A stretch of 64,000 nucleotides of DNA from a virus. Its lineage: Duplodnaviria; Caudoviricetes. Of this stretch, positions 38,248 through 64,000 are shown piece after piece. The number at the start of each line of letters is the position of its first letter. Within the stretch, counting starts at the first letter, position 1. Both the position numbers and the translations under genes were made by a program. The notes under the pieces were generated by a model. The model saw only the letters and a list, made by a program, of their open reading frames with translations, had not been told where the DNA came from and ran no database searches. Location of the stretch: IMG/VR virus record IMGVR_UViG_3300021139_001731, positions 1,580 to 65,579 of that record. The stretch is one strand, 5' to 3'.

Positions 38248-38258
38248 TATTTATTTTT

Positions 38259-38891: not shown

Positions 38892-38917
38892 AATATTTAT
38901 AAAAAAGAATATTCTAT
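38888..38917. repeat. 10-bp inverted repeat enclosing an ATATTTATA motif (38893-38901) just before the tail-fibre ATG
   Basis: ATAGAATATT / AATATTCTAT with 10-nt loop. Confidence 0.5.
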
Positions 38918-38918
38918 A

Positions 38919-42617: not shown

Positions 42618-42623
42618 AATGTT

Positions 42624-43637
42624 ATGTTTGATTTATTAGTTACAACTGGAGCAGGTAATGTTCCTATGGGTGGTAGTGATTTATGGGTAAACAATTTTAT
42701 AGAAAATGTAATACCATTTTTAGAACATCCAACTGTTTTATTAATTGATGGTAGAATGCCTAATGGGTTTGATCCTGATTCTATATCATGTCAATATGTA
42801 TTTGGAAAGGAAAACCCTTTATTAGTAGAACCTCTTTTAAGAAATTGTAGAAGAATACATTTTTTACATAACAATTATTATCGTAGAGATGAATTGTGGG
42901 AATATAAAAATAAATTTCATACTATATTCTGTCACGCCTACATTAAAGAAATTATAAATACTAATGTAGATTTGGGATTAGATAGAGTTTATTTACCTAC
43001 TACAATGGATTTACAATGGGAACAAGATGTAATGAATCAATGTAAACAAATAGTTTGGATTGGTTGTAATGATGGGTTAGTACAAAAAGATTTCAAAGAT
43101 AAATGTATTCAAATTCCAAACTACTACGAATTTCAGATTAATAATGAATATCGTTGGATGATAGATAAGATAGGATATGCGGCCCGTAGTGAGACACGAA
43201 AGTGTTTTCATTTTTTAGATGGACATAGGGGATATGCATGTACGGATTGGATGGGGTATGAAAATCTTAAAGAAGGATTAAACTTAGATTTAAAAAAGGT
43301 AAGATTTTACCCATATAATTTGGAAAATCATAGAAATTTCTTTAACTTAGACTTTACGATATTTCACGGTTGTTATGTAAATGAACCTTTTGGATATTCT
43401 ATATTTAACGCTGTAGATTATGGTAAACTTCCAATACTAAACAAATATTGGATGCCAAGAATACCATACAAATATAGAGCATCAACAAAAGAGGAATTTA
43501 ATAAAATGTATGAAATAATGTGTGATGATTTTGAAGTTGAAAGACAATATCAATTTAAATTATTAAAATCATCATTATTAAAATACGATAACAAAAGTGA
43601 ATGGATATTAGAAATAGTTAATTTATTAAATAAATGA
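42624..43637 (+). CDS. Putative GT-B (GT4-like) glycosyltransferase
   Basis: GGSDLWV N-terminus, EPFGYSIFNAVDYGKLPI donor-binding motif. Confidence 0.6.
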   Translation: MFDLLVTTGAGNVPMGGSDLWVNNFIENVIPFLEHPTVLLIDGRMPNGFDPDSISCQYVFGKENPLLVEPLLRNCRRIHFLHNNYYRRDELWEYKNKFHTIFCHAYIKEIINTNVDLGLDRVYLPTTMDLQWEQDVMNQCKQIVWIGCNDGLVQKDFKDKCIQIPNYYEFQINNEYRWMIDKIGYAARSETRKCFHFLDGHRGYACTDWMGYENLKEGLNLDLKKVRFYPYNLENHRNFFNLDFTIFHGCYVNEPFGYSIFNAVDYGKLPILNKYWMPRIPYKYRASTKEEFNKMYEIMCDDFEVERQYQFKLLKSSLLKYDNKSEWILEIVNLLNK

Positions 43638-44389
43638 TAACAAATAAAGATTACATTAAAGAATTTATTTCAAATAATCAAGAAGTAGATGATTACGGAG
43701 ACCAGGTTTTGTTAAATGTGCCATATCGTTGGTCACATGGTGCAACGGATGATCATTTAGGTGATGGTTTAATTATTTATTCTCTAATTCAGTTTATGAA
43801 AGCAAAAGTATGTGTTTGCCTTGGTAGTGGAGGTGGATTTATACCAAGAATAATGACACAGGCCAGAATTGATTTACATTCACAAAATATATTTGAAGGT
43901 GATGCTAACTATAATTGGGGTGATATAGGAACTACCTATGTTGTAGATGCAATGAATGGTATTGGTGGTAATGTAAATTGGTTTAAAGAAGAATCCTTTT
44001 TTAGAAGAGTATTTTCACCTAGGATAATTGCGGATACAACTACAAACGCATTTCATAATTATTTCGTATTAAATGATATTAAGATTGATTATTTACATAT
44101 TGATGCGGGACATTCATATGAAAATGTAAAGGAAGATTTTGATTTATATTCTCAGTTAATGAGTGAGAACGGAATTATATCAATTCACGATACTGACCCT
44201 AATTATGCAGATAAATACATAGTTACAAATGAAGTGAAGGATAGGGGTGATTTTGATGATTGGAACGGCCCTATTCAATTAGCAAAAGAAATAGATAATG
44301 AAAAATGGGAAGTATTTAATTTATTTAATTTTGGTATTATAAAAAATAAACCAGCATCTACTGGATTAACATTAGTAAGAAGAAAATAA
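43634..44389 (+). CDS. Class I SAM methyltransferase (Methyltransf_24-like)
   Basis: CLGSGGG, IDYLHIDAGHSYE, IHD. Confidence 0.8.
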   Translation: MITNKDYIKEFISNNQEVDDYGDQVLLNVPYRWSHGATDDHLGDGLIIYSLIQFMKAKVCVCLGSGGGFIPRIMTQARIDLHSQNIFEGDANYNWGDIGTTYVVDAMNGIGGNVNWFKEESFFRRVFSPRIIADTTTNAFHNYFVLNDIKIDYLHIDAGHSYENVKEDFDLYSQLMSENGIISIHDTDPNYADKYIVTNEVKDRGDFDDWNGPIQLAKEIDNEKWEVFNLFNFGIIKNKPASTGLTLVRRK

Positions 44390-45228
44390 TGAAAAGATTA
44401 GTTACCGTAACCGGAAGTAGAACAAATACACTTACACATTTTTTTAAATACTATCAAACTTTAGTAGATGAAATATATGTTGTAGTATACGAATGGGAAG
44501 GTATGAGCACATATGATGAAGTAGAAAGAATATCAAAACAATTTCCTAATGTTAATATTATTAATCGTTCTAAAAAAGAAAAATTTAATTGGGAGCATGT
44601 AACCTATCTTTACAATCAAACTAAAATGTTACATCCAAATGATTGGTGGATAGTTGCAGATGATGATGAGTTTCATGTTTATTCAAAAAATTTAAATGAA
44701 ATAATAGAAGATTGTGATAAAAATGGTTGGGATTTAGTTAGAGGTGGTTTTGTAGATAGAATAGGTAAAGAGGGTGAATTTGTAGAATTAAAAGAAGATG
44801 AATATATATTCCAACAATTTCCATTAGCAGGTTTTTTTCGTTATCCCTTAAGTGGAGCATGTCCTAATAAAATTTGTATAATGAAAGGATATATAGAATT
44901 AACACCTGGTCAGCATTATGCAAAAATAGATGGACAAACAACTTGGAAATGGCAAGGTTGGAATCATCCTTTAATAGCACCAACAAATGAATATAGTGTA
45001 ATAGTTAATCATTTTAAATGGGATAGTACTTGTGTTGATAGAATAAAACAAGTAGCAGATATTAATCAAAGATATTCATATTCAAAAGAATATCAGGAAA
45101 TGTACGATGCTATAAAACTAAATAATTTTAAGATTGATATTTATGATGAGAGGTTTATGATTGAAGAATGTGGTTGGTACCAGTATTCTAAGTGGGATAA
45201 ACTTTTTAAAATAATTCAGTCTATTTAA
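44389..45228 (+). CDS. Putative GT-A glycosyltransferase (GT2/GT92-like)
   Basis: WWIVADDDEF DxD motif. Confidence 0.6.
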   Translation: MKRLVTVTGSRTNTLTHFFKYYQTLVDEIYVVVYEWEGMSTYDEVERISKQFPNVNIINRSKKEKFNWEHVTYLYNQTKMLHPNDWWIVADDDEFHVYSKNLNEIIEDCDKNGWDLVRGGFVDRIGKEGEFVELKEDEYIFQQFPLAGFFRYPLSGACPNKICIMKGYIELTPGQHYAKIDGQTTWKWQGWNHPLIAPTNEYSVIVNHFKWDSTCVDRIKQVADINQRYSYSKEYQEMYDAIKLNNFKIDIYDERFMIEECGWYQYSKWDKLFKIIQSI

Positions 45229-45260
45229 TTTGGTTATATAAATAAAATTCGTTACATTTA
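45229..45260 (+). promoter_or_regulatory. Bacteroidota-type promoter (one mismatch)
   Basis: TTTG 45229-45232, 20-nt spacer, TAcaTTTA 45253-45260, before ATG 45264. Confidence 0.55.
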
Positions 45261-45263
45261 AAT

Positions 45264-46745
45264 ATGAGTAATCATAAATTAGCAATAATAATTCCTTATA
45301 GAGATAGGAGAGAACATCTTGATATTTTCTTGCCACATATGGTTGCATTTTTATCTAACAAAGATATTGATTACAAATTATTTATTGTAGAACAAAGTGA
45401 TGATAAACCATTTAATTATGGTAAGATTTGTAATGTAGCATTTGATTTATTAAAAGATGAATACGATTATTTTTGTTTTCATGATGTTGATATGTTACCT
45501 ACATCTGATAAAGCAGATTATAGTTACAAAGATTATCCTGTTCATTTAGCAACTAGAGTACAAGTTCATGATAATACATTACCTTACTTACAATATTTAG
45601 GTGGTGTATTTATAATTCCAAAAAAACAATTTGAAGAAGTTAATGGCTTCTCTAATGAATATTATGGTTGGGGTTATCACGACTTAGATTTATTATATAG
45701 AATGGATAAAGCAGGTCTAAAATTAGATTCGGAATACATTTATCCTAGAATCGATACTGAATATGAAATTGATAAATTAAAAATTACAGATTCAATTAAA
45801 AAAGAAAAAGTAACTTATTTAAAATTTGATGGTGAAACCCAAATGGAAATTTTACCAAATAAATTTTTAAAACCGTTTACAACCGATTCATTTACTATTT
45901 CAGCATGGATAAACTTTGATCAATTTGTAAAAGAAGAACAATATGTAGTTTCATTTCCTGGATATAATAGTGGTATATCAATTCAACCTGATAATACTTT
46001 AAGATTTAATTTTTGGGGTAAAGATTCAAAATACTATTTTAATTACAAAAAACTTAAACCAAATCAATGGCATCATATTGTTGCAAATGTTGATTTTGAT
46101 TCTAATAAATTAAAATTATTTATAGATACATTTGAAGAAGGATCTAAAATAGATAGTTTAACTCAATTTGAATTACCATTGTGGGATTATACAAAAGATA
46201 AAATATACATTGGATGTGGTTCACATGGTAAGAATATGTTTAGAGGAAAATTAGCTAATTTATATTTCTTTGATTATAATTTAAGTGAGTCTGAAATTAA
46301 AAATTTATACTTAAACGGATTAGTTAATAATAGAACATTACAAACACAATTTGAGCCAGTATTAAAATATCAGTTCAATAATTTCTATAAAAATTATTTA
46401 ATAGATGGTAGTAAAAATCATAACCATTCTACATTATATAATGAACATGGTAGTAATTATTCTCAATATTTAGGTAATACTGAAATTATAAAAACTACAA
46501 AAATAAAATTACCTAAAAGAATAGAAGCAACATTTCAATCGTTACCACATGATAACGATACTAATATTGTTGAAAGATTTAATGGATTTGATCCTGATAC
46601 TATTGAAAACGGATTAATATTTTTTAAAGATATTCTTACTAAAAAAATAACAACAGATACAATTGGATTAAGTAATTTGAAATATAAATTTATTGAGAAT
46701 GAAAAATTTGATGAACATACAAATTGGATTAAAATAATACTTTAA
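45264..46745 (+). CDS. GT7 galactosyltransferase-like enzyme with inserted LamG domain (copy 1)
   Basis: IIPYRDR, FNYGK, HDVD, GGV, NGFSNEYYGWGYHDLD; LamG; C-terminal LPH...GLSNLKY. Confidence 0.85.
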   Translation: MSNHKLAIIIPYRDRREHLDIFLPHMVAFLSNKDIDYKLFIVEQSDDKPFNYGKICNVAFDLLKDEYDYFCFHDVDMLPTSDKADYSYKDYPVHLATRVQVHDNTLPYLQYLGGVFIIPKKQFEEVNGFSNEYYGWGYHDLDLLYRMDKAGLKLDSEYIYPRIDTEYEIDKLKITDSIKKEKVTYLKFDGETQMEILPNKFLKPFTTDSFTISAWINFDQFVKEEQYVVSFPGYNSGISIQPDNTLRFNFWGKDSKYYFNYKKLKPNQWHHIVANVDFDSNKLKLFIDTFEEGSKIDSLTQFELPLWDYTKDKIYIGCGSHGKNMFRGKLANLYFFDYNLSESEIKNLYLNGLVNNRTLQTQFEPVLKYQFNNFYKNYLIDGSKNHNHSTLYNEHGSNYSQYLGNTEIIKTTKIKLPKRIEATFQSLPHDNDTNIVERFNGFDPDTIENGLIFFKDILTKKITTDTIGLSNLKYKFIENEKFDEHTNWIKIIL

Positions 46746-46754
46746 ATAAAACAT

Positions 46755-47000
46755 ATGGCAGACAAAAAAGAATTATCATTAGAAGAAAGAAATGTTATAG
46801 CTTTAGAAAAACAAGCAAAAGCAACTGAAAGGTTAGCATATGCAGCTGAAGATATTGCAGAGTTTTTCCACATCTCTGATATTGGTAAATTTACTGAAAA
46901 ATTAGAATGGTATTTATATGAATTTCACCAAATCTTAAAGACAAGACAAGTAGGTGGTTCATCATCTAGACCTGATAAAAATTACGAAAGAGAAGCATAA
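46755..47000 (+). CDS. Hypothetical 81-aa protein
   Basis: TAATG-coupled to the next gene. Confidence 0.6.
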   Translation: MADKKELSLEERNVIALEKQAKATERLAYAAEDIAEFFHISDIGKFTEKLEWYLYEFHQILKTRQVGGSSSRPDKNYEREA

Positions 47001-48412
47001 TGCAAAAACTAGCAATTATAGTTCCATATCGAGATAGACAATCTCACTTAGAAGTATTTATTCCTTATATGGAAGAATATTTAAAGAATTATGATTACAA
47101 GATTTTTGTCATAGAACAAAATGATAGTAAACCTTTTAATAGAGGTAAACTTTTAAACATTGGTGCAAGAATTGCAATTAAAGAAGGATTTGATTATTTT
47201 GCATTACATGATGTGGATATGTTACCATTAAAAAATGTAGATTATTCTTATCCAGAAACACCTGTACATTTAATATCAAAAGTAGATAAAGAAGTTCCAT
47301 TCGTTGATTATTTTGGTGGTGTAACTTTATTTAATGTACATGATTACAAATTAGTTAATGGATATTCTAATGAGTATTGGGGGTGGGGGTTTGAAGATGA
47401 TGATTTATTATATAGATGTATACAAAGAAATATACCATTAGATAAAGTGGCATATGGTATAAAAGATAATAATTATTTGATTAATTATTTTAAATTCGAT
47501 GGAAATACATCATATATTAAAATACCTTATAAGAATTTTCAATCCATATTTAATTCTGATTTTACATTATCAATTAAATTAAAACCGGAAGATACTAAAA
47601 CTTCATTAAAAGAAACATTTGATGAATATTATGCAGTATCAATTCCAGGTAGAAACACTGGTATTTCATATACATCATTTAAAAGATATAAATCAGAAAT
47701 TTGGACAAAAGATGATAAATCAAAATCTATTCAATCAGATATATTAGGTGAAATATGGTCGCATTTAGTTTTAGTTAAAGAGAGTAATCAAATTTCATTT
47801 TATATGAATGGTGAATTAATTGGAACCGAACAACTAAGTGATTTATTGTATGAATATGATAATGATTATTTTTATATTGGTGTAGGTAATCCAACATTAG
47901 ATAGTAAACAATTTTATTTTAAAGGATTAATTGCTGAGTTTGCTATTTGGAATATTGCATTAGATAAAGATAATATAAATGAAGTATACGAAAATTCATT
48001 ATATAAATCAATCATTAACGATTATAGAAAATATAACAAATCAAAATATCTTAAATGTTATTATGATTTTAAAAATTTCAAAGGAGATATTATACAAGAT
48101 TTAAGTGGTAATAGAAACAATGGTATGATGTATAATTGTGAAGATGGTATTATACTAGATAAATTTGAAACAGAAATAGTAGTTCCTATCAGAAGAAAAG
48201 GACAATTTAAAACATTAAAACATACATCTAATTCTACAATTGGAAATAATTGGATTCATTCAGAAACAAGAAATAACCAAGAAAGATTTTATAATGAAAT
48301 GAAAGGTAACATTGTAGATTTATCTATCGATGGATTAAACACCTGTATTTTTAAAGAAATAGATAGAGTGGATATAACAGATAACGCAGTTAAAATTTCA
48401 GTTAATATATGA
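47000..48412 (+). CDS. GT7-like enzyme with inserted LamG domain (copy 2)
   Basis: IVPYRDR, FNRGKLLN, HDVD, WGWGFEDDD; LamG; C-terminal LKH...DGLN. Confidence 0.88.
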   Translation: MQKLAIIVPYRDRQSHLEVFIPYMEEYLKNYDYKIFVIEQNDSKPFNRGKLLNIGARIAIKEGFDYFALHDVDMLPLKNVDYSYPETPVHLISKVDKEVPFVDYFGGVTLFNVHDYKLVNGYSNEYWGWGFEDDDLLYRCIQRNIPLDKVAYGIKDNNYLINYFKFDGNTSYIKIPYKNFQSIFNSDFTLSIKLKPEDTKTSLKETFDEYYAVSIPGRNTGISYTSFKRYKSEIWTKDDKSKSIQSDILGEIWSHLVLVKESNQISFYMNGELIGTEQLSDLLYEYDNDYFYIGVGNPTLDSKQFYFKGLIAEFAIWNIALDKDNINEVYENSLYKSIINDYRKYNKSKYLKCYYDFKNFKGDIIQDLSGNRNNGMMYNCEDGIILDKFETEIVVPIRRKGQFKTLKHTSNSTIGNNWIHSETRNNQERFYNEMKGNIVDLSIDGLNTCIFKEIDRVDITDNAVKISVNI

Positions 48413-49851
48413 AGTTAGGAGTTTGTGTACCATATAGAAATAGAGAAGCTCATTTAGCAGAGTTTGCACCAAGAGTTCATAAATTCTTAACGGAGCAAGC
48501 TATTGAACATAAAATTTATTTTGCACATCAATGTGATGATAAATTGTTCAATAGAGGTAAAATGAAAAATATTGCAGCCAAACACGCGTTTGATGATGGT
48601 TGTGATTATATTGTATGGCACGATATAGATATGGTACCAGAAGATAGTTCTTGTGATTATAGCTTCAATCCTGAGAACCCTAAACATTTAGCAGTAAGAA
48701 TATCTCAAACAGATTATAATCTAAAATATGAGGAGTATTTTGGTGGTGCAGTACTATTCACAAAAGAACAAGTAATGACTACAAATGGTTACTCAAATGA
48801 TTATTGGGATTGGGGTATGGAGGATGATGACCTATTTTGGAGATGTGTATTGACTGGTAATGCAGAGCAACATTATTTACCACAACTTGATAATCAAAAG
48901 TATGGTTATTTCAATGGTAAAGATTCATATGTAAAAATTGAACCATCCCGTTCATTAAGAAATGTTTGTTCAAGGTCGCATACAGTTTCCATATTAGTAA
49001 GAGCACACCAACAAGAAGAAAAAGTTCCAATTTATTTAATTGGTGATGAAGATAGAAGATTTTGTGAATACCCAATTTTCAGAAGACCGGGTCATGATTG
49101 GGGTATATCTTATAATAATAGTAGAGCATTTACTACAATGATGTGGAACAATAGTAGAGAGTTTTTATATCTTTGGGCAAAACGATATGAACAACAATGG
49201 ACATGGGTTACATTGACCGTAGATGATGAAACTAAAGAAATATCATTATATATTAACGGAAAGAAAAGTGATGCACGTTTTGGAACAGGATTATCCTCAC
49301 CATTACAATATGAAGGATTTTTAAAAAGATATGGTATAGAACCTTATTATATAGGAACAACTACATCAGTAAAAGAGGGTGAAGTAAATAAATGGTTTAA
49401 AGGGGATATTGCTAAAATGTTTATTTGGGATAGGTGTTTAGATGAAAATGAAATATTAGAATTTCCAGATGAAATGGTAGCACATTATGATTTTAATGAA
49501 ACTAATGGAAATATTTTAACAGATTTAAGTGGAAATGGAAATCATGGTGAAATATATAATGTAGAAATAAAAGAGGAAGATATTTTGAAAATTCACAATA
49601 CTATCTTACCTTTCCGTAGAGATGGTAAGTTTGAATGTTTACCACACCAAACGGAAGGATTGATTAGTATAGGTGGTGTTGATAAATGGGCAAAGGGTGA
49701 AACTACTGCAAGAAATGAGAGACGATATATTTTAGAAATGCAGCAAGGAACATATGATTGGAAAAATGATGGTATGAATAGTTTAGAATACGAACTCATA
49801 TCAGTAGAAGATATAGGAAATAATTCAGTAATGATAAATTGTAAAGCATAA
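48409..49851 (+). CDS. GT7-like enzyme with inserted LamG domain (copy 3)
   Basis: CVPYRNR, FNRGKMKN, HDID, WGMEDDD; LamG; C-terminal LPH...DGMNSLEY. Confidence 0.88.
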   Translation: MKLGVCVPYRNREAHLAEFAPRVHKFLTEQAIEHKIYFAHQCDDKLFNRGKMKNIAAKHAFDDGCDYIVWHDIDMVPEDSSCDYSFNPENPKHLAVRISQTDYNLKYEEYFGGAVLFTKEQVMTTNGYSNDYWDWGMEDDDLFWRCVLTGNAEQHYLPQLDNQKYGYFNGKDSYVKIEPSRSLRNVCSRSHTVSILVRAHQQEEKVPIYLIGDEDRRFCEYPIFRRPGHDWGISYNNSRAFTTMMWNNSREFLYLWAKRYEQQWTWVTLTVDDETKEISLYINGKKSDARFGTGLSSPLQYEGFLKRYGIEPYYIGTTTSVKEGEVNKWFKGDIAKMFIWDRCLDENEILEFPDEMVAHYDFNETNGNILTDLSGNGNHGEIYNVEIKEEDILKIHNTILPFRRDGKFECLPHQTEGLISIGGVDKWAKGETTARNERRYILEMQQGTYDWKNDGMNSLEYELISVEDIGNNSVMINCKA

Positions 49852-52893: not shown

Positions 52894-52894
52894 T

Positions 52895-57096: not shown

Positions 57097-58385
57097 AATT
57101 AATTAATTTTTATATTGAAAATTGGGCAAATGATGGAATTAATGATGGTTACACTCCATTACCAAATGGTGTCTTTGATTTTAAATTTAACCAATCATTT
57201 GCCGCAAATAATTTTACAGGAGTTATAGATGAAATTAGAGATAGTGAATTACAAAGTAGTTTAAATGAAATATTTTTAAGAGCAAAATATGGTGAAAAAA
57301 GATATGCAGTTGCATTTGAACATAAAGATTTAAAAATAGTTTTAACCGATAAACCAGTATTAGAAGGTGCAATTGAGAATTATTATTTAGTTACACCCAA
57401 AGTTCATATGGAAACATTAGAAGAATATTTACCATATTACGATACTATATTAGAAAAGGGAATTAAAATTTTATTTGTAAGTTTTCATGAAAGTGGTGTA
57501 TATCCTAAATTTTATAAATGGATTAATAATAACAAATACCATAATCAAATTTATACTATAACACCTTGTTATAATATAAAAAAATTTACAAAAGGACATC
57601 ACATATATTTTCCATTTTTAACATATGATTTAGATCATAACTTTAAACAAAACGATAGTTTATTTTCAGTATGTGATAGGGAAATGTATGATAATACTGC
57701 AAAAAGAAAAATGATTCTATCTTTTAATCGAAATGTAAAAAGAGAACATAGATTTTATTTTTATAATTTTTGTAGAATGGAAAATTTAATAGATGATAAT
57801 TACATTTCATTTTTAGAATTTCCTGATGAGCATGTTGAGTTTTATAATACAATGCAAATTCCAATATTAAATGAATATAAAAAATTCTTTTTAGAAAATG
57901 CACCACATTATGAGGTATCGGTAGATGTTAGAACGGATGATCCTGGATATGTAGAAAACCTTTTACATAATTGGAACAATGATAGTTGGTTATATGCAGA
58001 GAGTTTATTTTCAATTGTACTAGAAACAAAATACTTTGAAAGAGATATTATGATTTCAGAAAAAGTATTAAGACCTATTGCAAATTGTCATCCATTTGTA
58101 GTCATTGGTCCAAGATATACAACAAAGATTTTAGAAGATATGGGATTTTATATTCCACCTTTTATAGATTATAATGAGTTAGATAAAGAAGATTTTCCTT
58201 GGTTACGATTGGTAAAAACATTTGAACAAATAAAAAAATTAGTAAAATATTGTGAAGAACACAATGAACTTCCTCCGTTTGATATGGATAAAATAGAAGC
58301 AAATCAAAAATTACTTTTAGGGTTTGATAGAAGTGAAGTTTTATATGAATACTATTCAAAATTAATAAAAACAAAAATAATATAA
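57093..58385 (+). CDS. Paralogue of 55606-57096, putative glycosyltransferase
   Basis: FNRNVK..HR and SIVLETK...ISEKVLRPI..CHPFVVIG. Confidence 0.4.
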   Translation: MKLINFYIENWANDGINDGYTPLPNGVFDFKFNQSFAANNFTGVIDEIRDSELQSSLNEIFLRAKYGEKRYAVAFEHKDLKIVLTDKPVLEGAIENYYLVTPKVHMETLEEYLPYYDTILEKGIKILFVSFHESGVYPKFYKWINNNKYHNQIYTITPCYNIKKFTKGHHIYFPFLTYDLDHNFKQNDSLFSVCDREMYDNTAKRKMILSFNRNVKREHRFYFYNFCRMENLIDDNYISFLEFPDEHVEFYNTMQIPILNEYKKFFLENAPHYEVSVDVRTDDPGYVENLLHNWNNDSWLYAESLFSIVLETKYFERDIMISEKVLRPIANCHPFVVIGPRYTTKILEDMGFYIPPFIDYNELDKEDFPWLRLVKTFEQIKKLVKYCEEHNELPPFDMDKIEANQKLLLGFDRSEVLYEYYSKLIKTKII

Positions 58386-59323
58386 TGAAAAAAGTTTTAA
58401 TAACAGGTTGTAGTGGTTTAGTAGGAATACATTTAGTAAAAAAATGTTTAGTAGCGGGATATGAAGTAATTGGTGTAGATTTAAGACAATCTGAACATTT
58501 ACCAACATCAGAAAGATTTACTTTTTATCAAATGGATTTAACTAAAACAGAAAACATAGAACAATTATTTTTCTATGAAACTCCTGATGTAGTATTTAAT
58601 ACATTTGGTGTTAAAGGTTCTCCATTAAGAGCAAAAGAAAAGCCAGTAGATTTCTTATATCCATCCTTTAAAATTAATACTGAAATTATTAATCAATGTG
58701 CAAAGAATAATACTTGGTTAATATTTGTTAGTTCAGTTGGAGTATATGCACCGGCAGAAACATTTATAGAAGATAGTGTATGGAAAACATTACCATCAGA
58801 AGCAGATTGGTTTCCAAGTTGGAGTAAGAGAATGGGTGAAGTATTGTTAGAAGCATATAAAGTTCAGTTCAATTACACTAATTGGGCAATTATAAGACCG
58901 GCAAATATATTTGGTGAATACGATAACTTTGATGGAACTGGAACCGTTATTGCAACTCAATGTAAAAAAGTATTTGAAGCAGATAGTGAAATAGAAGCAT
59001 GGGGTGATGGTACACCTATTAGAGATTTTGTATATGCGGGTGATGTTGCAAATGCAATTTTATCGTTATATGAAAGACAAATTCATACAACTATTAATTT
59101 TGGAGCTGGTGAAGAAATTACAATCAAATCAATGATTGAACAATTAATAAAAATTAGTGGAAAAGATATATATATTAAATGGGATACAACCAAACCAAAT
59201 GGTGACCTTCGTAGACAAATGGACACTACTAAACAAAAAGAAATTGGATTGTTACCAATATTAGGTTTTAATGAAGCTCTAAAATTAACATATGAAAGTT
59301 ATATCTCAAAAAGAATTGGATAA
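58385..59323 (+). CDS. Extended SDR, GDP-fucose synthase-like
   Basis: TGCSGLVG, RPANIFG, WGDGTPIRDFVY. Confidence 0.85.
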   Translation: MKKVLITGCSGLVGIHLVKKCLVAGYEVIGVDLRQSEHLPTSERFTFYQMDLTKTENIEQLFFYETPDVVFNTFGVKGSPLRAKEKPVDFLYPSFKINTEIINQCAKNNTWLIFVSSVGVYAPAETFIEDSVWKTLPSEADWFPSWSKRMGEVLLEAYKVQFNYTNWAIIRPANIFGEYDNFDGTGTVIATQCKKVFEADSEIEAWGDGTPIRDFVYAGDVANAILSLYERQIHTTINFGAGEEITIKSMIEQLIKISGKDIYIKWDTTKPNGDLRRQMDTTKQKEIGLLPILGFNEALKLTYESYISKRIG

Positions 59324-59693
59324 AGAATTTGAGTATTTAGAAAAACAAAAAGCAATACTCAAAGAAGAAAGAGAAAAAATAATGTTGGAAAGAAGTAAAT
59401 TGTATTATCAATGGAAAGAAATACAAGAAACAGATGAATCTATTCAAAAAGACCAAGAAAGAGTTAATAAATTAAGAGGTGATTTACAATTTGAATTAAA
59501 AAAAGTAAATGAAGAATATACTATTAAGATAGATGCTGAAATCGCAGAAATACGAAAAGAAAAAAACAATGAATTAGAACTAGAACTGCAACAAGATAGA
59601 TTACGATTAGATAAAATTAGAAGAGATTTACATGAGTTAATTGCAATAGAAGAAGCAACAGTAATAACATTTAAACAAAAAAATATAATATAA
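59292..59693 (+). CDS. Charged coiled-coil hypothetical protein
   Basis: E/K/L heptads throughout; TAATG-coupled to the next gene. Confidence 0.55.
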   Translation: MKVISQKELDKEFEYLEKQKAILKEEREKIMLERSKLYYQWKEIQETDESIQKDQERVNKLRGDLQFELKKVNEEYTIKIDAEIAEIRKEKNNELELELQQDRLRLDKIRRDLHELIAIEEATVITFKQKNII

Positions 59694-60430
59694 TGTTAGA
59701 TATACAAAAAAATGAATATTCTACTGGAACAATATGGGATATGGTAGATGAAATAAATTCCGATTTTCTTAAATCTTTATACGATAGTGTTTTAGTTAAA
59801 TTCAAAGATAACACAGATTGTGTAACTTATTTGTATTCATCATACAATGATCATCCAGATTATAAACAATCTGCATATTATACAAAAGATGAATTTATTA
59901 ATATAAAACAATATGTAGAAGAAAAAAATGATGAAAGATATGAACCACATCAGCAAAATAAAATGTGTCATACTCATTTATCTGAATTTGAAGAAAAGAT
60001 TGGTTTAGATAAAAATTATTTTAACAATGTAGTATATAAAGTATTAGATGATTTAGCAGTTAAAATATTAAAAAAAGAATATAATATAGAAGTTAACACA
60101 GAAGATTTTATACATAAAGCACAATTAACTTGGTATAGTGATGGTGATTTTATTAAAATGCATGATGATGGACCGACTGATACTAGAATATGTGCTTTGT
60201 TAATTTATTTAACTCCGGAAGAATATTATAAAGCAGGTAGTGGTGGTGAATTGGTATTGAAAAATAGAAAAAATACAATTGATATAGCTTATCCAATATT
60301 AGGAAACTATGCAGTTATTGATTTTACAAGAAACTCACCGGTACATTCAGTACATAAAGTGAGTGGAAATTTCAATAGATTTGCATATTTAAATTTTATA
60401 GAATTAAAAGATAAAAATGCAAGGCCTTAA
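59693..60430 (+). CDS. 2OG-Fe(II) oxygenase
   Basis: HDD, LIYL...GGE, HSV, R. Confidence 0.85.
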   Translation: MLDIQKNEYSTGTIWDMVDEINSDFLKSLYDSVLVKFKDNTDCVTYLYSSYNDHPDYKQSAYYTKDEFINIKQYVEEKNDERYEPHQQNKMCHTHLSEFEEKIGLDKNYFNNVVYKVLDDLAVKILKKEYNIEVNTEDFIHKAQLTWYSDGDFIKMHDDGPTDTRICALLIYLTPEEYYKAGSGGELVLKNRKNTIDIAYPILGNYAVIDFTRNSPVHSVHKVSGNFNRFAYLNFIELKDKNARP

Positions 60431-61067
60431 TAAATCATATTATTGTGGAAATGGGAATGAATTTTTTGGAAATGAATATTCTAAAAGATTAGAAGAAGCA
60501 TATAATGGAATATTAAATTATAAAGATTTTGATTATCAAATTATATATTCTTTAAATGCAGTACACAATGTAAGTATTGTACCATCAAAACCATTTAATG
60601 AACAAATTTTTTATAAAAATGAATTTATTTCAAAGAAAGAAAATTTAGCACAAGTTTGGTTTGAAAAGAATAATCTAATAACTGAATTTCATTCTATATC
60701 TGATTATTGTTATTTAAAATTATTAGAATTATATCCTGAACAAAGTAAAAGATTTGGTGGTCCATCTTTTTCTTTAACAATATATGATAAAGGTTGTTTT
60801 ATAGAAAATCATAAAGATGGTGATGATGATGATAAAAGTAGATTATGTGTAGTTTTATTGTATTTAAATAAAGATTGGAAACCGGGAATGGGTGGAGAAC
60901 TAATAATTACAGATGAACATGGAAATAAATTGGAAATTACGCCAGAATTTGGTAACTTTGCAATACTAGATTTTCAAAATTATAATTTATACCATGAAGT
61001 TAAACCAATTACGGATGATAACTTTCATAGAAAAACATTAATAAGTTTTATACATTTAGCAAAATAA
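60417..61067 (+). CDS. 2OG-Fe(II) oxygenase
   Basis: HKD, LYLNKDW..GMGGE, HEV, RK. Confidence 0.85.
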   Translation: MQGLNKSYYCGNGNEFFGNEYSKRLEEAYNGILNYKDFDYQIIYSLNAVHNVSIVPSKPFNEQIFYKNEFISKKENLAQVWFEKNNLITEFHSISDYCYLKLLELYPEQSKRFGGPSFSLTIYDKGCFIENHKDGDDDDKSRLCVVLLYLNKDWKPGMGGELIITDEHGNKLEITPEFGNFAILDFQNYNLYHEVKPITDDNFHRKTLISFIHLAK

Positions 61068-61072
61068 AAAAT

Positions 61073-62050
61073 ATGATAAATAAAGATTCAAAAATCCTGA
61101 TAACAGGTGGTTCTGGATTAGTCGGACAGAACTTAACAAACCGATTACACAAAGAAGGTTACACAAACATTAGAGTTAATTTACACAAAAGAGGTGTAAG
61201 AAATCCAATTGAAGGAGTGGAGTATGTTCACTTTGATTTGAAAACATACGAAGGATGTTTAGATGCAACTAAAGGAGTAGAAGTAGTTTACCATTGTGCA
61301 GCAAGTACATCAAACGCAGTAGACACAGTAGTTGACCCATTAGCACATGTTACACCAAACGTAGCAATGAACAATTTCTTAATTGATGCCAGTTGGAGAA
61401 ATAAGGTTCAACATTACATCTTCTTATCATCTAATACTGTTTATCCACCAAAAGGAGATAAGCCGGTAGTAGAGACAGATTTCCTATTTGATGAACCATA
61501 TCCGGTATACTTTCCAGTAGGTTGGATGAAAAGATATGCAGAAGTTCAATGTGAATTATACGCAAAGTATTTACCAACAAAAATGAAGTGCACGGTGATT
61601 AGACCTGCAAATTTATTTGGACCACATGATAAGTACGATTTCAATAAATGTCATGTTACTCCTGCAACAATTAGAAAAGTAGCAGACCAAATGAACCCTA
61701 TTCCAGTGTGGGGTGATGGTAGTGAATTACGAGATTTATTATATATTGAAGATTTTGTAGAAGCATTACAAATAGTAATGGAAAAAGAAAAAGAAGATTA
61801 TCAAGTTTATAATATTGGTTCTAACAGAGTTTATTCAGTATTAGAAGTATTAGAAGCAATGAAAAGAATTGCAAACTATAATGCACCTACTGAATTTATT
61901 AAAGGTAAACCATCGATGATTCCAACTCGTAAAATTGATTCATTTAAAATTTATGATAAATTAGGATGGCAAGCAACTACATCATTAGAAGATGGATTAA
62001 AAAATGCATATGAATGGTATTTAGAACATAAAGATGAATTCCAAAATTAA
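61073..62050 (+). CDS. Extended SDR, GDP-fucose synthase-like
   Basis: TGGSGLVG, RPANLFGPHD, HVTPA, WGDGSELRDLLY. Confidence 0.88.
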   Translation: MINKDSKILITGGSGLVGQNLTNRLHKEGYTNIRVNLHKRGVRNPIEGVEYVHFDLKTYEGCLDATKGVEVVYHCAASTSNAVDTVVDPLAHVTPNVAMNNFLIDASWRNKVQHYIFLSSNTVYPPKGDKPVVETDFLFDEPYPVYFPVGWMKRYAEVQCELYAKYLPTKMKCTVIRPANLFGPHDKYDFNKCHVTPATIRKVADQMNPIPVWGDGSELRDLLYIEDFVEALQIVMEKEKEDYQVYNIGSNRVYSVLEVLEAMKRIANYNAPTEFIKGKPSMIPTRKIDSFKIYDKLGWQATTSLEDGLKNAYEWYLEHKDEFQN

Positions 62051-62916
62051 TGAAAGGTATTTTATTTCCAGGCGACTCATATACATGGGGTGAAGGTCTT
62101 CATTTATATTCGGAGTTACCAGATACAAAATTTGATGAAATGGCGTTTGATGGAACAAATTATACTCCTTCTCATATTAAATTTATAGAAGCAAATAGAT
62201 TTGCAAGAAAAGTTGCAAATCACTTCAATACGTTTGAATTAGTTAGATTTAGTAATGGTGGTAACAATAATGATATTTTTGAATTTATTGATCAGTTACC
62301 AAAACAATATTTAAAAAACCATATGCCAGCTACTGGACGTATACAAGTTCCTAGATCGGTAGAATATAGATTAGAAGATTTTGATTATATTGTTTTACAA
62401 TTAACTGATATGTTTAGAAATGAAATTAAGTTTGAATATAAAGACATTATCGGATATTGTAACATTAGGTCAGATGAAAGTATAAAAAGGTCTGGTTTTA
62501 TTTTCTATTTAAAAGATAATTTTAATGGTAATATAAATTATTTCATTGAATATTATTTAAAAACTACAATTTATAATATAATAGAAAAATTTAAATTATA
62601 CGAATCAAAAGGAATTAAAAGATGTTTTATTCATACATGGCATAATGACCCAATTCCGTTCTTTAACAATAATGAATTCTTAAAAGAAAGGTGGATTACA
62701 TATGATGATGGAAATAATATATTTAATTCAATTATGGATTTACAAAGTTCAGAAAAAAGAAGGTCTGGTATGAGTATAAATGATGATTATTTTTTTATAC
62801 AAAAAGGAATAATTGTTAATAATGGGCATACATCATTAGAAGCACATAATATACAAGCAAAAGCAATAATTAAAAAAATAGAAGAATATGAGCAGTCCAC
62901 AATACACTCCGTATAA
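62050..62916 (+). CDS. SGNH-like protein
   Basis: GDSYTWGEG, ANRFARKVANHF, terminal GH. Confidence 0.6.
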   Translation: MKGILFPGDSYTWGEGLHLYSELPDTKFDEMAFDGTNYTPSHIKFIEANRFARKVANHFNTFELVRFSNGGNNNDIFEFIDQLPKQYLKNHMPATGRIQVPRSVEYRLEDFDYIVLQLTDMFRNEIKFEYKDIIGYCNIRSDESIKRSGFIFYLKDNFNGNINYFIEYYLKTTIYNIIEKFKLYESKGIKRCFIHTWHNDPIPFFNNNEFLKERWITYDDGNNIFNSIMDLQSSEKRRSGMSINDDYFFIQKGIIVNNGHTSLEAHNIQAKAIIKKIEEYEQSTIHSV

Positions 62917-63433
62917 AGATGCATTAACAACGGCAATGACTAATTTAGCAGAGTTAGAAGATTCTGTTTTTATTGGACAACAAATTGTATATCAAGGAAA
63001 TCCTATGAGCACAACATTGGGTGGTGTATCAAAGGATAAAATGATTGAAGTTCCTGTAATGGAAGAATCACAAATGGGAATGAGTTTAGGTATGGCAATG
63101 GCAGGTAAAAGAGTTATTACATTTTATCCAAGATGGGATTTTATTATATGTGCAACAAATCAATTAGTAAATCACGTAGATAAGATTGGATTAATGAGTG
63201 GTGGCAAATGGAAACCAAACTTAATTATCAGATTGGGTAAGGGTAGTGATAAACCATTAGATCCAGGTCATCAACACAAAGGAAATTACTTTGATGAATT
63301 TAAAAGTATGTGTCCTAATATAGAATTTCACGATTTAAAAAGACCTGAAGATATTGAATTAGCTTACAAATATGTAACTAAAGAAGGTGGTATTCATATT
63401 ATGGTAGAATATCCGGAGTTATATTATGTATAG
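62888..63433 (+). CDS. TPP-dependent enzyme, E1 beta / transketolase pyrimidine-binding subunit lacking the C-terminal domain
   Basis: VPVMEESQMGMSLGMAMAG, DFI..ATNQLVN, DPGHQH; 181 aa. Confidence 0.85.
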   Translation: MSSPQYTPYKDALTTAMTNLAELEDSVFIGQQIVYQGNPMSTTLGGVSKDKMIEVPVMEESQMGMSLGMAMAGKRVITFYPRWDFIICATNQLVNHVDKIGLMSGGKWKPNLIIRLGKGSDKPLDPGHQHKGNYFDEFKSMCPNIEFHDLKRPEDIELAYKYVTKEGGIHIMVEYPELYYV

Positions 63434-64000
63434 TGGAAAAGGAATTATATTTGTAGGATGTTCTTTTACTTGGGGTGGTGGTTTAGAATATTACCCACCA
63501 TTTAAGGATATTCCAGATCCATATGCATTTCAATATGATGAACAAAAAATTACATTTGCAATAATGAATTTTATTAAAGCAAATAGATTTAGTAGATTGG
63601 TTGCAAACCATTTTGGAATGTGGGAAGCAAATAGATTAAATTGTGGTGGTTCTGATGATGGTTCAATTGACCAAATAAAAATGATGTTAGAATTAGGTAA
63701 TCATAGTCAAAACATTTCCAAGCAATTTGAAAATATTAAAATGCAAAGATATTCAGCAGATGAAATTGAATATGTTGTATTCCAATTAACAGATCCATTT
63801 AGAAATTATCATATTAATATAAATGGTGAAAATTTAGTAATTAATATTGCACAAATAAGACAAAGAAATACTAATGAATTTAATAAAAATGATATTAAAA
63901 TAGATAACAATAAAATTACATTACCATTAAATAATTTTGATATTCAACAAAATGATAAATTAGAATTATGTGATATAGATAATGAAGGAATTACAAATAA
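63426..64000 (+). CDS. SGNH-like protein, paralogue of 62050-62916 (runs off the window edge)
   Basis: Translated by hand: MYSGKGIIFVGCSFTWGGGLEY...KANRFSRLVANHF...VVFQLTD; no stop before 64000. Confidence 0.7.
   Translation, partial: MYSGKGIIFVGCSFTWGGGLEYYPPFKDIPDPYAFQYDEQKITFAIMNFIKANRFSRLVANHFGMWEANRLNCGGSDDGSIDQIKMMLELGNHSQNISKQFENIKMQRYSADEIEYVVFQLTDPFRNYHININGENLVINIAQIRQRNTNEFNKNDIKIDNNKITLPLNNFDIQQNDKLELCDIDNEGITN

Follow-up and report, generated by a model that had tools for sequence, protein, structure and literature searches.

A candidate glycan-synthesis island behind the tail-fibre gene of an uncultured T4-like jumbo myovirus

Large "LPS" gene clusters next to tail fibres have been published for T4-like cyanophages and pelagimyophages. 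Besides tail fibres, these regions of 20-45 kb encode glycosyltransferases, radical SAM cassettes, and epimerases and reductases that act on nucleotide sugars. Elsewhere among viruses the acceptors are known to be structural proteins: in the O-glycosylation of mycobacteriophage capsids and tail tubes, and in the fibril glycans of giant viruses and the capsid glycans of chloroviruses, virus glycosyltransferases act cytoplasmically on structural proteins. Giant viruses also encode sugar-nucleotide pathways, and host secretory machinery is not used. Two cellular systems supply the nearest chemistry. In the capsule heptose pathway of Campylobacter jejuni, a GDP-sugar is oxidised at C4 by Cj1427, epimerised at C3/C5 by Cj1430 and reduced at C4 by Cj1428 (PMC10680097), and E1 alpha/beta pairs offer a precedent for giving 4-keto sugars a two-carbon branch (PMC4802897).

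Here we compare these systems with a locus in a 64,000-nucleotide stretch of viral DNA, the whole of which we call the window. Positions 42,624-64,000 hold 22 consecutive ORFs of at least 80 aa, all on the + strand like every feature described below, which either overlap or are separated by at most 35 nt. The unbroken run described in an earlier sequence-only reading is thereby confirmed, and the whole island measures ~24 kb. That reading had likened it to bacterial O-antigen or giant-virus loci more than to phage regions, a contrast that does not hold, given the comparable clusters of the cyanophages and pelagimyophages. Like the island, the P-SSM2 and S-SM2 clusters and the pelagimyophage host-recognition cluster belong to aquatic T4-like myoviruses, and in all of them function is a prediction. 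The island nevertheless comes from another lineage, with genomes of 237-335 kb and a TerL only ~35% identical to that of cyanophages, as against 55% to Flavobacterium phage immuto and Microcystis phage Mel-JY01. Such islands are already known in aquatic phages, and what is new is this enzyme set, in which PHROG assignments are missing for nearly all proteins.

The source is an uncultured T4-like jumbo myovirus, with the island between its tail-fibre gene and its packaging and head genes. Upstream lie a baseplate wedge, a tail lysozyme-like protein and a tail fibre with an S74 chaperone. The anticipated continuation past the window edge is real but short: the contig itself terminates there, inside the island, and relatives carry only two further genes, one completing the 63426 paralogue and the other encoding a third GT-B paralogue. 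In relatives L046 and L018 a large protein follows, then a T4-type terminase (TerL) and portal, so the island is internal to a T4-like jumbo phage, phage-encoded as originally proposed. An assembly artefact or chimera, with sugar genes of a bacterial O-antigen locus fused to a phage contig, might be suspected from the contig end within the island and from the binning of some homologous contigs into bacterial MAGs. Yet GC content (~27-30%, uniform, the same as in the remaining window) and coding strand are unchanged across the junction, and the phage-syntenic MAG contigs (L092 and L124) are short, low in GC and probably mis-binned. Moreover, the order fibre, GT-B, methyltransferase, GT2, three GT7-LamG genes and onward to TPP beta recurs in at least eight independent viral contigs, and the island is kept inside single viral contigs of 100-335 kb, the complete relatives (237-335 kb) being 95-100% complete. 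Synteny therefore refutes a chimera as far as possible, and we regard one as extremely improbable. That the locus is a phage glycan-synthesis island is, by our estimate, very probable.

Its conserved core is predicted to comprise a dehydrogenase, epimerase and reductase trio together with a minimal split ThDP enzyme. SDR-A (51925..52893) is a Cj1427-type nucleotide-sugar C4-dehydrogenase by its match to PDB 6VO6/6VO8 (E 3.8e-111 over 302 aa), the first of which we take to be Cj1427. The cupin (54435..54971; Pfam dTDP_sugar_isom, 4e-34) is a Cj1430-like 3,5- or 3-epimerase of 4-keto nucleotide sugars, and its top PDB matches are GDP-D-glycero-4-keto-D-lyxo-heptose epimerases (E 2e-37 to 5e-35), with RmlC behind at 1e-24. 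SDR-B (58385..59323) and the Cj1428-like SDR-C (61073..62050) resemble GDP-fucose synthases or C4-reductases, with below-cut-off matches to NCBIfam GDPFucSynFcl (1e-38 and 8e-42, respectively); in the PDB, SDR-C matches GDP-fucose synthetase (5e-31) and 8ewu, 7anh, 7cxt, 7m13 and 7anc (5e-28 to 8e-21). A dTDP-rhamnose set was considered for these "RmlC plus SDR" genes and rejected, as their closest counterparts are instead the C4-dehydrogenase, 3,5-epimerase and C4-reductase that act on GDP-heptose in the Campylobacter capsule pathway. The canonical YxxxK motif seems to be missing from SDR-B and SDR-C.

The island shares with the C. jejuni pathway the logic of oxidising C4, epimerising and then reducing. 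In contrast to that pathway, the phage lineage lacks the GDP-heptose supply genes (neither GmhA nor an NTP_transferase-type guanylyltransferase was found in relatives, and no nucleotidyltransferase is conserved in the complete ones) as well as capsule export genes; it adds the ThDP enzyme, two radical SAM enzymes and 2OG oxygenases, and its substrate may be a hexose. On balance we lean towards a core that makes a branched sugar derived from GDP-heptose or GDP-mannose.

The ThDP enzyme consists of an E1 alpha-like PP-domain subunit of 211 aa (54971..55606; Pfam E1_dh 1.6e-19 and TPP_enzyme_C), in which the ThDP motif GDM...EDNG is intact, and an E1 beta-like Pyr-domain subunit of 181 aa (62888..63433; Pfam Transket_pyr, NCBIfam PDH E1 beta 5e-13). 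Pfam and NCBIfam thus agree with the initial calls of TPP alpha and beta, as they do for the three SDRs, which are of the extended type, and the RmlC-type cupin. The subunits reach only ~60% of the length of normal E1 subunits, and the E1-beta C-terminal domain is missing. In cellular genomes beta immediately follows alpha; the phage halves are 7 kb apart. S-SM2 and P-TIM68 carry a homologue of this mini-ThDP enzyme (32-35% identity), which is fused in S-SM2 but split in the island. Plm8/Plm9 (paulomycin) and AviB1/AviB2 (avilamycin) likewise divide the E1-type PP and Pyr domains between two polypeptides, and their gene clusters, like that of the phage, also encode a 3,5-epimerase, reductases and a methyltransferase; YerE (yersiniose) is a functional counterpart among two-carbon-branch ThDP enzymes. 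These systems work in a dTDP- or CDP-sugar context, whereas the phage context is that of a GDP-sugar and the phage activity is a prediction.

Across related loci, TPP alpha and beta are universal (48/48), and SDR-B (38/48), SDR-C (38/48, median 80% identity), the cupin (36/48) and SDR-A (31/48) are common; TPP beta occurs in at least 108 viral contigs. SAR11, CPR bacteria and DPANN archaea also carry the core cassette in their surface-glycan loci, and in SAR11 HIMB1412 it sits directly 3' of a 4,6-dehydratase-family gene. This setting of the cellular homologues, in surface-polysaccharide loci that also hold GT2 genes and an ABC exporter, speaks against a virion acceptor and for the main rival, a remodelling of the host envelope. 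The same sugar would then be placed on host lipid-linked O-antigen, capsule or glycoprotein intermediates and moved outward by host exporters, which might, for example, block superinfection or keep progeny from sticking to debris. Published readings of the P-SSM2 and pelagimyophage clusters favour such modification of host LPS, and S-SM2 has a comparable ~20-kb cluster with a fused mini-transketolase homologue. On the other hand, the island and its continuation yielded neither an initiating phosphoglycosyl transferase nor a flippase, polymerase, ligase or ABC transporter, which extends to the relatives the absence of the flippase, polymerase and ligase seen earlier, and neither part encodes a protein with a credible transmembrane segment. 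Soluble or peripheral enzymes also make up most of the glycosyltransferases for O-antigen and capsule, as is normal in lipid-linked assembly, so a lack of membrane proteins is compatible with host lipid-linked targets too, and the soluble transferases could equally act on such intermediates. What tells further against the host envelope is position: the island follows a tail fibre in the structural, late-type part of the genome and is not placed with early genes, and GT-B genes repeatedly come directly after S74 fibres. A strictly lytic T4-like phage would presumably also gain little from a late surface change. We consider host-surface remodelling less likely, if still the strongest competitor.

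Glycosyltransferases number seven in the window and eight in relatives. The first, a GT-B enzyme of GT4 or T4 AGT-like type (42624..43637), has no Pfam match; its GT4-like motif NEPFGYSIFNAVDYGKLPI and its atlas neighbours (AGT 0.97, Glycos_transf_1 or GT4 0.96) bear out its original assignment as GT4-like. A GT-A, GT2-like identity for 44389..45228 is probable, with a DDD run and a Glyco_tranf_2_4 score of 25.8 bits that falls below the cut-off of 27.5. Two further GT-B enzymes lie at 55591..57096, possibly GT10/fucosyltransferase-like, and at 57093..58385; the two are paralogues (BLASTP E 1e-6), and the GT-B fold of the 55591 family in a predicted model (pLDDT 86) confirms the earlier GT-B-like calls.

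Three tandem enzymes (45264..46745, 47000..48412 and 48409..49851) combine GT7N, GT7C and Laminin_G_3 in Pfam, exactly as had been read from the sequence, and are well diverged (the second 32% identical to the first, the third 28-32% to its paralogues). Unlike animal β1,4-galactosyltransferases of GT7 (B4GALT1, B4GALT7), they lack a membrane anchor or stem, occur as three paralogues and carry, within the catalytic domain, a LamG insertion of ~230 residues between the EDDD helix and the conserved-His loop. GT7-LamG enzymes were found in none of 50,697 deposited phage genomes. The free-standing protein at 51242..51925 has no Pfam match; BLASTP to the LamG part of 48409 (E 8e-5) tentatively agrees with the LamG call made for it.

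The resemblance of 42624 to the T4 DNA alpha-glucosyltransferase, its nearest atlas cluster, raises the alternative that AGT/BGT-like GT-B and tailoring enzymes glycosylate modified phage bases as a defence against restriction, as in T4, RB69 and further phages. The lineage is T4-like, and diverse glycans on phage DNA are known (PMC13326640; bioRxiv 10.1101/2023.12.21.572611). However, known routes need either a thymidylate-synthase homologue, as for 5hmC, 5hmU and 5hoC (PMC13326640), or a C5-methyltransferase with TET. Neither of the complete relatives G001 and G002 encodes a Thymidylat_synt-family hydroxymethylase/hydroxylase or a C5-methyltransferase, G001 despite a second 42624-type paralogue that likewise directly follows an S74 fibre, and a DNA acceptor is therefore disfavoured. 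Tet_JBP gave no match, with control genomes equally silent. Eight glycosyltransferases, together with lectin-like domains and a pathway to a branched sugar, go beyond what is known for any DNA glycan, and the structural matches are generic GT-B ties. We judge DNA hypermodification highly improbable; of the two cytoplasmic acceptors first suggested, virion protein or DNA, the former is the one we favour.

The tailoring enzymes were mostly identified correctly at the outset, as Pfam and NCBIfam indicate. They include a class I SAM methyltransferase (43634..44389; Methyltransf_24, 1.4e-9, 39 bits against a cut-off of 26) and two twitch-type radical SAM enzymes, at 49851..51242 and 52895..54442, which score 327 and 306 bits against NF033640 (cut-off 170) and share 34% identity. 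The first has an N-terminal twitch-type auxiliary cluster, with invariant cysteines C22, C41, C83, C86 and C137xxxC141xxC144. Only one of the 50,697 deposited phage genomes has a twitch radical SAM enzyme. Two P4H-like 2OG-Fe(II) oxygenases follow (59693..60430, Pfam 2OG-FeII_Oxy_3 7e-9; 60417..61067, Pfam 4e-12), the second having 4IW3/4J25 (E 1e-5) as its only meaningful PDB relative. The exception is the pair initially called SGNH: 62050..62916 and its paralogue at 63426..64000 (38% identity), which is cut by the contig end and whose full-length orthologues in L046 and L018 span 268-300 aa. They match no SGNH family in Pfam or by family profile against the PDB, and the invariant S10, N69-G70-G71 and H260 of 62050 suggest a possible SGNH-like esterase or acyltransferase.

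This repertoire of an E1-like ThDP pair, radical SAM enzymes, 2OG oxygenases, a methyltransferase and many glycosyltransferases recalls the avilamycin and paulomycin oligosaccharide antibiotic clusters, and a further tailoring-type gene, a carbamoyltransferase, lies elsewhere in the window. The island might accordingly make a soluble product (a free glycoside, a glycolipid or a modified small peptide) rather than a conjugate. But enzymes that would form an aglycone (PKS, NRPS, cyclases) are missing from it, as are resistance genes and exporters, and its place within the virion module is conserved; such a product seems very unlikely to us.

The tail fibre immediately 5' of the island (38919..42617, 1232 aa; Pfam Peptidase_S74 2e-13) is itself a candidate acceptor, with a Ser-rich stalk around residues 430-540 and an S74 intramolecular chaperone at its C terminus. 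Its N-terminal ~420 aa are conserved in relatives in the same position, and the adjacency of fibre and glycosyltransferase is seen again in G001 (twice), G003 and G004. A late-type promoter-like motif, ATATTTATA, lies at 38893..38901, 17 nt 5' of the fibre start codon. The window has ten copies, all on the + strand, and seven of them stand 12-33 nt 5' of start codons of structural-type genes; in relatives the motif is conserved ahead of the fibre orthologues and of genes adjoining terminase and portal. No + strand terminator was found in the scanned part, 38,000-57,999, and the island genes appear to be co-transcribed with the fibre from this predicted promoter, which makes a virion protein the most likely acceptor. 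Against a virion acceptor stand the total motif count in the window, which shows no excess over chance, and the complete relative G002, in which 44 kb separate the GT7-LamG genes from the S74 fibre. We put a virion acceptor at slightly under an even chance. Proximity to structural genes is a feature the island shares with known virion-glycosylation systems, though mycobacteriophages employ one to three glycosyltransferases and host sugars, and virion glycans in the island's lineage are a prediction.

Our best overall reading, which we hold at about even odds, is a soluble cytoplasmic glycan pathway that is fed by a host GDP-sugar and most likely decorates virion proteins. Because no phage sugar-1-phosphate nucleotidyltransferase is present, a host GDP-sugar of manno configuration, GDP-D-glycero-D-manno-heptose or GDP-mannose, would be used. 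SDR-A would oxidise C4, the cupin would epimerise C3 and/or C5, the two-subunit ThDP enzyme would attach two carbons, probably supplied by pyruvate, to the 4-keto sugar, and SDR-B and SDR-C would carry out reductions. The two radical SAM enzymes, the methyltransferase, the P4H-like oxygenases and the two possible esterase/acyltransferase-like proteins may tailor the sugar further. The glycosyltransferases would then assemble an oligosaccharide, with the inserted lectin-like LamG domain of the three β4GalT-like enzymes beside the acceptor site, and a tail fibre or other structural protein would be glycosylated in the cytoplasm before assembly. The site of two-carbon addition, the radical SAM chemistry and the choice of heptose or hexose are proposals from sequence. 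The P4H-like oxygenases might also make hydroxylated attachment sites.

A third P4H-like 2OG-Fe(II) oxygenase (38259..38891; 2OG-FeII_Oxy_3, 4e-9) lies just upstream of the fibre and is a paralogue of both island oxygenases (BLASTP 40% identity to 60417). Two small ORFs match no family: a coiled-coil-like one of 133 aa (59292..59693) is poorly conserved (2/48 loci), and one of 81 aa (46755..47000) is 47-89% conserved in close relatives.

Genes in the window are closely packed on one strand at ~28% GC throughout, and from 42,624 to the window end they form a run of 22 ORFs with intergenic gaps of at most 35 nt. Because the window is the final 64,000 bases of a 65,579-bp viral contig, this + strand carbohydrate island is cut by the contig end as well as by the window edge. 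On its 5' side lie genes for a gp6-like baseplate wedge protein, a tail-lysozyme-like protein, a primase, a 2OG oxygenase and a 1232-aa tail fibre (38919-42617) ending in an S74 intramolecular chaperone. The sequence-only reading had seen in the island an uninterrupted run of sugar-making and decorating genes, a description that is borne out overall except for its two SGNH calls. Pfam and NCBIfam back the methyltransferase, the three GT7-LamG proteins (ORFs 45264, 47000 and 48409, each with GT7N, GT7C and Laminin_G_3), two radical SAM proteins (49851 and 52895, both of the N-terminal twitch subfamily NF033640), three extended SDRs (51925, 58385 and 61073, here SDR-A, SDR-B and SDR-C), an RmlC-type cupin (54435), E1-alpha-like and E1-beta-like ThDP proteins (54971 and 62888) and two P4H-type 2OG oxygenases. 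ORF 42624 has no family match; it carries a GT4-like motif, and its nearest clusters in our reference atlas are T4-type AGT (0.97) and GT4 (0.96). The LamG likeness of 51242 is weak, with no family match, and 44389 has a GT2-like score slightly under the Pfam threshold. The SGNH calls for 62050 and 63426 had a motif basis alone: neither the family profile nor Pfam gives an SGNH match, none of 24 family members matches the SGNH Pfam models, and the profile finds no match in the PDB. The family keeps S10, N69, G70/G71 and H260 invariant, which is compatible with SGNH, although the spacing is atypical. PDB sequence searches with 42624, 55591 and the first radical SAM enzyme gave nothing useful, nine of the 10 island ORFs tested against PHROGs had no family (the radical SAM protein being the sole credible match), and at the DNA level the island matched none of 50,697 phage genomes.

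A GT7-LamG protein search recovered at least 8 viral contigs that share the gene order from the tail fibre onward, and a search with the E1-beta-like protein at least 108, up to 335 kb in length. Three relatives are rated 95-100% complete (237, 335 and 316 kb), and the contig of this window 28%. In two homologous loci, L046 and L018, the sequence runs past the point at which our contig stops: the remainder of the 63426 paralogue is followed by a third paralogue of the GT-B family of 55591 and 57093, then by a large protein with DUF5661 and cytidylyltransferase-like domains (preceded in L018 by two extra ORFs without a Pfam match) and, in L046, by a T4-type large terminase and a T4-type portal identified with Pfam, genes that the L018 locus stops short of. 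The possibility of a host-phage chimera was set aside because the island's synteny recurs within viral contigs and terminase and portal come next in L046. Among cultured phages, the nearest terminases (55% identity) belong to Flavobacterium phage immuto and Microcystis phage Mel-JY01. The DUF5661 protein (L046:12786-16070 and L018:14697-19409; 1094-1570 aa) is the first gene after the island and has a late-type motif upstream in L046; it might serve in sugar-phosphate activation or act as a structural protein that carries an enzymatic domain. Two contigs, one binned in a Pelagibacterales MAG (VHCC01000006.1) and one in a gammaproteobacterial MAG (NZZP01000015.1), also carry the full synteny of the island at phage-like GC, GT7-LamG and twitch radical SAM genes included, and probably represent phage DNA binned wrongly.

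No result is more informative than the match of SDR-A to PDB entries 6VO6 and 6VO8 (E 3.8e-111 across residues 2-303, 302 residues). We take 6VO6 to be Cj1427, the Campylobacter jejuni C4-dehydrogenase for GDP-D-glycero-α-D-manno-heptose. The best PDB matches of the cupin are GDP-D-glycero-4-keto-D-lyxo-heptose 3,5- and 3-epimerases (2e-37 to 5e-35), with RmlC scoring more poorly (1e-24), and SDR-C matches GDP-fucose synthetase (5e-31) as well as 7anh, 7m13 and 7anc, some of its matches presumably being Campylobacter heptose C4-reductases. In that organism, Cj1427 oxidizes C4 and its NADH is recycled with α-ketoglutarate, Cj1430 carries out C3/C5 epimerisation and Cj1428 reduces C4 (PMC10680097, whose reference list includes the structure paper taken as that of 6VO6). 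Judged by sequence, the island shares with the Campylobacter GDP-heptose pathway a Cj1427-type C4-dehydrogenase, a cupin C3/C5-epimerase and an SDR C4-reductase; it differs in that its relatives are without the supply of GDP-D-glycero-D-manno-heptose (GmhA, kinase, phosphatase and guanylyltransferase). SIS_2 and NTP_transferase found no match in the three 95-100% complete relatives, so the substrate would come from the host or be another GDP-sugar, and a host GDP-sugar is the most likely start of the pathway. A strong candidate 4,6-dehydratase occurs in only one of the complete relatives, and small cytidylyltransferase-like genes are found elsewhere in the relatives' genomes. The much higher scores of the cupin and SDRs against GDP-heptose enzymes led us to reject a dTDP-rhamnose-type pathway. 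In both Fcl-like SDRs (58385-59323 and 61073-62050) the canonical YxxxK seems to be missing where expected, the segments FPSWSK and YFPVGWMK standing instead.

To this set the phage adds a minimal split ThDP enzyme. Its alpha subunit (211 aa) matches E1_dh at 1.6e-19 (profile 8-173 of 300) and carries a GDM...EDNG motif, its beta subunit (181 aa) matches Transket_pyr at 1.8e-6 (profile 5-138 of 174), and the conserved Glu is present. Plm8/9 and AviB1/B2 likewise combine an E1 alpha PP domain bearing the ThDP motif with an E1 beta Pyr domain, whereas the phage subunits are short (the E1 norm is about 320-360 aa each) and are not encoded side by side, the genes being 7 kb apart in the phage and adjacent in cells. 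Cyanophage S-SM2 differs again in that a carbohydrate cluster of ~20 kb in its genome holds a fused version. From the parallels with Plm8/Plm9, AviB1/AviB2 and YerE, and from the co-conservation of the pair with enzymes for making and processing 4-keto sugars, we infer that the enzyme may place a pyruvate-derived two-carbon branch on an NDP-4-keto sugar. A split ThDP enzyme of the phosphonate/sulfopyruvate-decarboxylase type was discarded, as Pfam and NCBIfam assign the domains to the E1/transketolase type and no PEP mutase turned up.

Among 48 related loci with full flanks, homologues of both ThDP subunits occur in all 48. SDR-B and SDR-C have homologues in 38 loci each, the cupin in 36 and SDR-A in 31, followed by the SGNH-like proteins (25-27), the radical SAM proteins (24-26), the 55591-type GT-B (24) and GT7-LamG (13, many of its copies lying beyond the ±10 kb sampled). 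Beyond phages, a single-sequence scan of 185,579 species genomes with the alpha subunit found nothing; an alignment-based scan of the same genomes found 34 loci at 43-63% identity, in SAR11, CPR bacteria, DPANN archaea, Omnitrophota and others. There alpha lies directly beside beta, usually flanked by SDR-B, cupin and SDR-C. On a 1.3-Mb contig of Pelagibacter HIMB1412, the ThDP pair is 3' of a GDP-mannose-4,6-dehydratase-family gene, and the presence of two GT2 genes, an ABC exporter, a GHMP kinase and further ThDP enzymes marks this as a surface-glycan locus. Since the HIMB1412 locus pairs the core with a 4,6-dehydratase-family gene and the phage pairs it with a Cj1427-type gene, the predicted input is an NDP-4-keto sugar from either kind of enzyme, on which the epimerase, the ThDP enzyme and the two reductases would act next. 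A core common to SAR11, CPR bacteria and DPANN archaea suggests that an uncharacterised sugar is widespread in streamlined aquatic microbes, and among natural catalysts of C-C branching in nucleotide sugars the phage enzyme may be the smallest.

Assembly of the glycan would fall in part to the GT7-LamG proteins. All three paralogues score far over the Pfam gathering cut-offs (68-87 bits for Glyco_transf_7N, cut-off 27; 56-68 bits for 7C, cut-off 23), and in a structure model (pLDDT 85) the GT-A fold superposes on the β4GalT catalytic domain. Foldseek aligns the first ~155 residues with β4GalT1 and β4GalT7 at 35-39% identity (E about 1e-14). Across 26 aligned members, the H-D-x-D, W-G-x-E-D-D-D and D-G-L-N-x-L motifs and a C-terminal His are all kept, and H73, D74, D76, W136, G137, D140, D142 and H429 are invariant; from its position, H429 would be the counterpart of the metal-binding His of β4GalT1. 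Family membership predicts UDP-Gal or another UDP-hexose as donor and a β1,4 linkage. The matches of the model place LamG within the GT-A domain, just N-terminal to the conserved-His segment. In β4GalT1 the equivalent loop covers the donor on closing and makes up the acceptor site, and since LamG adjoins that loop, a role in acceptor recognition is plausible, by analogy with the lectin domain of polypeptide GalNAc-transferases. This architecture is found in 241 metagenomic clusters, all functionally unnamed, and the protein had no match in the 50,697 deposited phage genomes.

The radical SAM pair scores 327 and 306 bits against NF033640 (curated cut-off 170). Invariant in its family are C22, C41, C83 and C86 of an N-terminal four-Cys auxiliary site as well as C137, C141 and C144 of the CxxxCxxC motif, and residues 60-112 weakly match the twitch region of BtrN; the family profile finds only weak PDB matches to MoaA, BtrN, YydG and viperin. 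Ralstonia phage RsoM2USA (MG752970.1, about 217-219 kb) is the sole deposited phage with twitch radical SAM homologues, at 38% identity in two places, within a region whose annotations are all hypothetical proteins. The 2OG oxygenases are of prolyl-hydroxylase type, with 4IW3/4J25, which we take to be a protein prolyl hydroxylase, as sole PDB relative (E 1e-5).

Several observations, the prolyl-hydroxylase type of these oxygenases among them, point toward a virion protein as the acceptor of the finished glycan. The motif ATATTTATA shows no overall enrichment; all 10 copies in the window are on the coding strand, and seven sit 12-33 nt 5' of structural-type start codons, including that of the tail fibre. 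Sites before structural-type genes lie at 119, 15376, 24777, 29665, 31615 and 38893, and the motif is kept 5' of fibre orthologues and of terminase/portal-adjacent genes in relatives, a placement suggestive of late expression. GTATATTTGA-like sites (4542, 12029 and 34080) precede the primase and other early-type genes. A scan for sigma-70 promoters and terminators gave fewer matches than in shuffles. Because the island has no intergenic ATATTTATA and 38,000-57,999, the part scanned, has no + strand terminator-like site, fibre and island seem to form a single late unit. G001, a complete relative of 237 kb, repeats the window's arrangement of fibre, GT-B and three GT7-LamG genes, and in it a 33%-identical paralogue of the 42624 GT-B (G001:C1:116517-117820) follows within about 140 nt 3' of a second S74 tail fibre. 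Glycosyltransferase genes adjoin S74 fibres in G000, G001 (twice), G003 and G004, the last with GT7-LamG genes 3 kb from the fibre, but not in G002, where the GT7-LamG genes are not near one either. We regard the chances of a virion protein being the acceptor as close to evenly balanced; the P4H-like oxygenases would then perhaps make hydroxylated attachment sites.

The sequence-only reading had argued for a cytoplasmic acceptor, virion protein or DNA, from the absence of flippase, polymerase and ligase. That absence is confirmed: no ORF of the island or of its continuation in L046 and L018 has a credible transmembrane segment, so the island holds no initiating transferase, flippase, polymerase, ligase or ABC exporter and differs from a Wzx/Wzy- or ABC-dependent surface polysaccharide locus in being without membrane-embedded machinery. 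The host envelope is an acceptor that we consider unlikely but worth keeping in mind, as soluble glycosyltransferases build lipid-linked glycans too, the core derives from surface-glycan loci, and host O-chain modification is the published view for cyanophage and pelagiphage clusters. DNA can be glycosylated by way of a C5-methyltransferase plus TET; no C5-methyltransferase was found in G000-G003, and a Tet_JBP search gave no match in the relatives, with control genomes equally silent. Other routes pass through a thymidylate-synthase homologue to 5hmC, 5hmU or 5hoC (PMC13326640). Thymidylat_synt was not found in G001 or G002, both 100% complete, and was present only in G004. G001 and G002 have neither enzyme, although G001 has two 42624-type GT-B copies, and we regard DNA as a highly improbable acceptor. 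Of the earlier proposal, then, the virion protein is favoured and DNA is not, and the wider interpretation, that the genes make, polymerise and decorate unusual nucleotide sugars, is supported in part.

In regard to the host, a TAnnTTTG-like motif (the GTATATTTGA class), which recalls the Bacteroidota -7 promoter element, and the Flavobacterium-phage-like terminase are hints of Bacteroidota, but the SAR11-rich spread of the core cassette points against this.

To our knowledge, the sugar clusters of aquatic T4-like phages have been called "LPS genes" for twenty years and their function has never been tested. As a kind, such clusters are already known, because they are documented beside tail fibres in T4-like cyanomyophages and pelagimyophages, and a recently described freshwater jumbo lineage with predicted Bacteroidota hosts, the Moraphages, has four core GT orthogroups (PMC12619734). 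The features of the Moraphages are compatible with those of our phage (freshwater, 200-307 kb, T4-like core VOGs), which may belong to the same lineage, with no shared identifier to link the two. What is new here is the Cj1427-type entry step, the minimal split ThDP enzyme, the twitch radical SAM pair, three GT7 proteins with an inserted LamG, a GT-B family without a family model and a recurrent pairing of fibre and GT-B. Tentatively, and with rather less than even confidence, we propose that the tail fibres or other virion proteins of a widespread, uncultured lineage of T4-like jumbo phages (at least 108 contigs) bear a complex glycan of the phage's own making. It would contain a branched-chain heptose-derived sugar and be built by animal-like β4-galactosyltransferases that have captured a LamG beside the acceptor site, P4H-like oxygenases perhaps making hydroxylated attachment sites. 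If true, tailed phages would have their first example of elaborate, virus-autonomous protein glycosylation, on a par with that of giant viruses. A virion acceptor would extend phage "glycan shields" beyond mycobacteriophages to abundant freshwater and marine phages and bear on host recognition, aggregation and decay in nature, and a host-surface acceptor would mean large-scale surface rewriting by a lytic phage. Given that the system is common, has yet to be characterised and can be tested directly, we rate its significance as moderate to high: it offers as handles a conserved five-enzyme core with 6VO6 as a close structural homologue of the first step, an unnamed GT7-LamG architecture in hundreds of metagenomic clusters, and a recurrent tail-fibre and GT-B pair open to direct co-expression.

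Other genes of the window deserve brief mention. A NodU/CmcH-type carbamoyltransferase (13663-15360, + strand; PHROG 1601, E 7e-123) sits among tail and baseplate genes 27 kb 5' of the island, of which it could be a functional part through sugar O-carbamoylation. The first ORF (143-1639) has a weak Pretoxin-HINT match below the cut-off (E 3e-4), and 6057-6977 encodes an N6/N4 DNA methyltransferase (E 4e-22). SbcD- and SbcC-type proteins are two separate polypeptides in T4 and bacteria; here an SbcD/Mre11-type metallophosphoesterase and an SbcC/Rad50-type SMC ATPase are fused in one 1048-aa polypeptide (35101-38247, + strand; Pfam Metallophos, AAA_23 and SMC_N).
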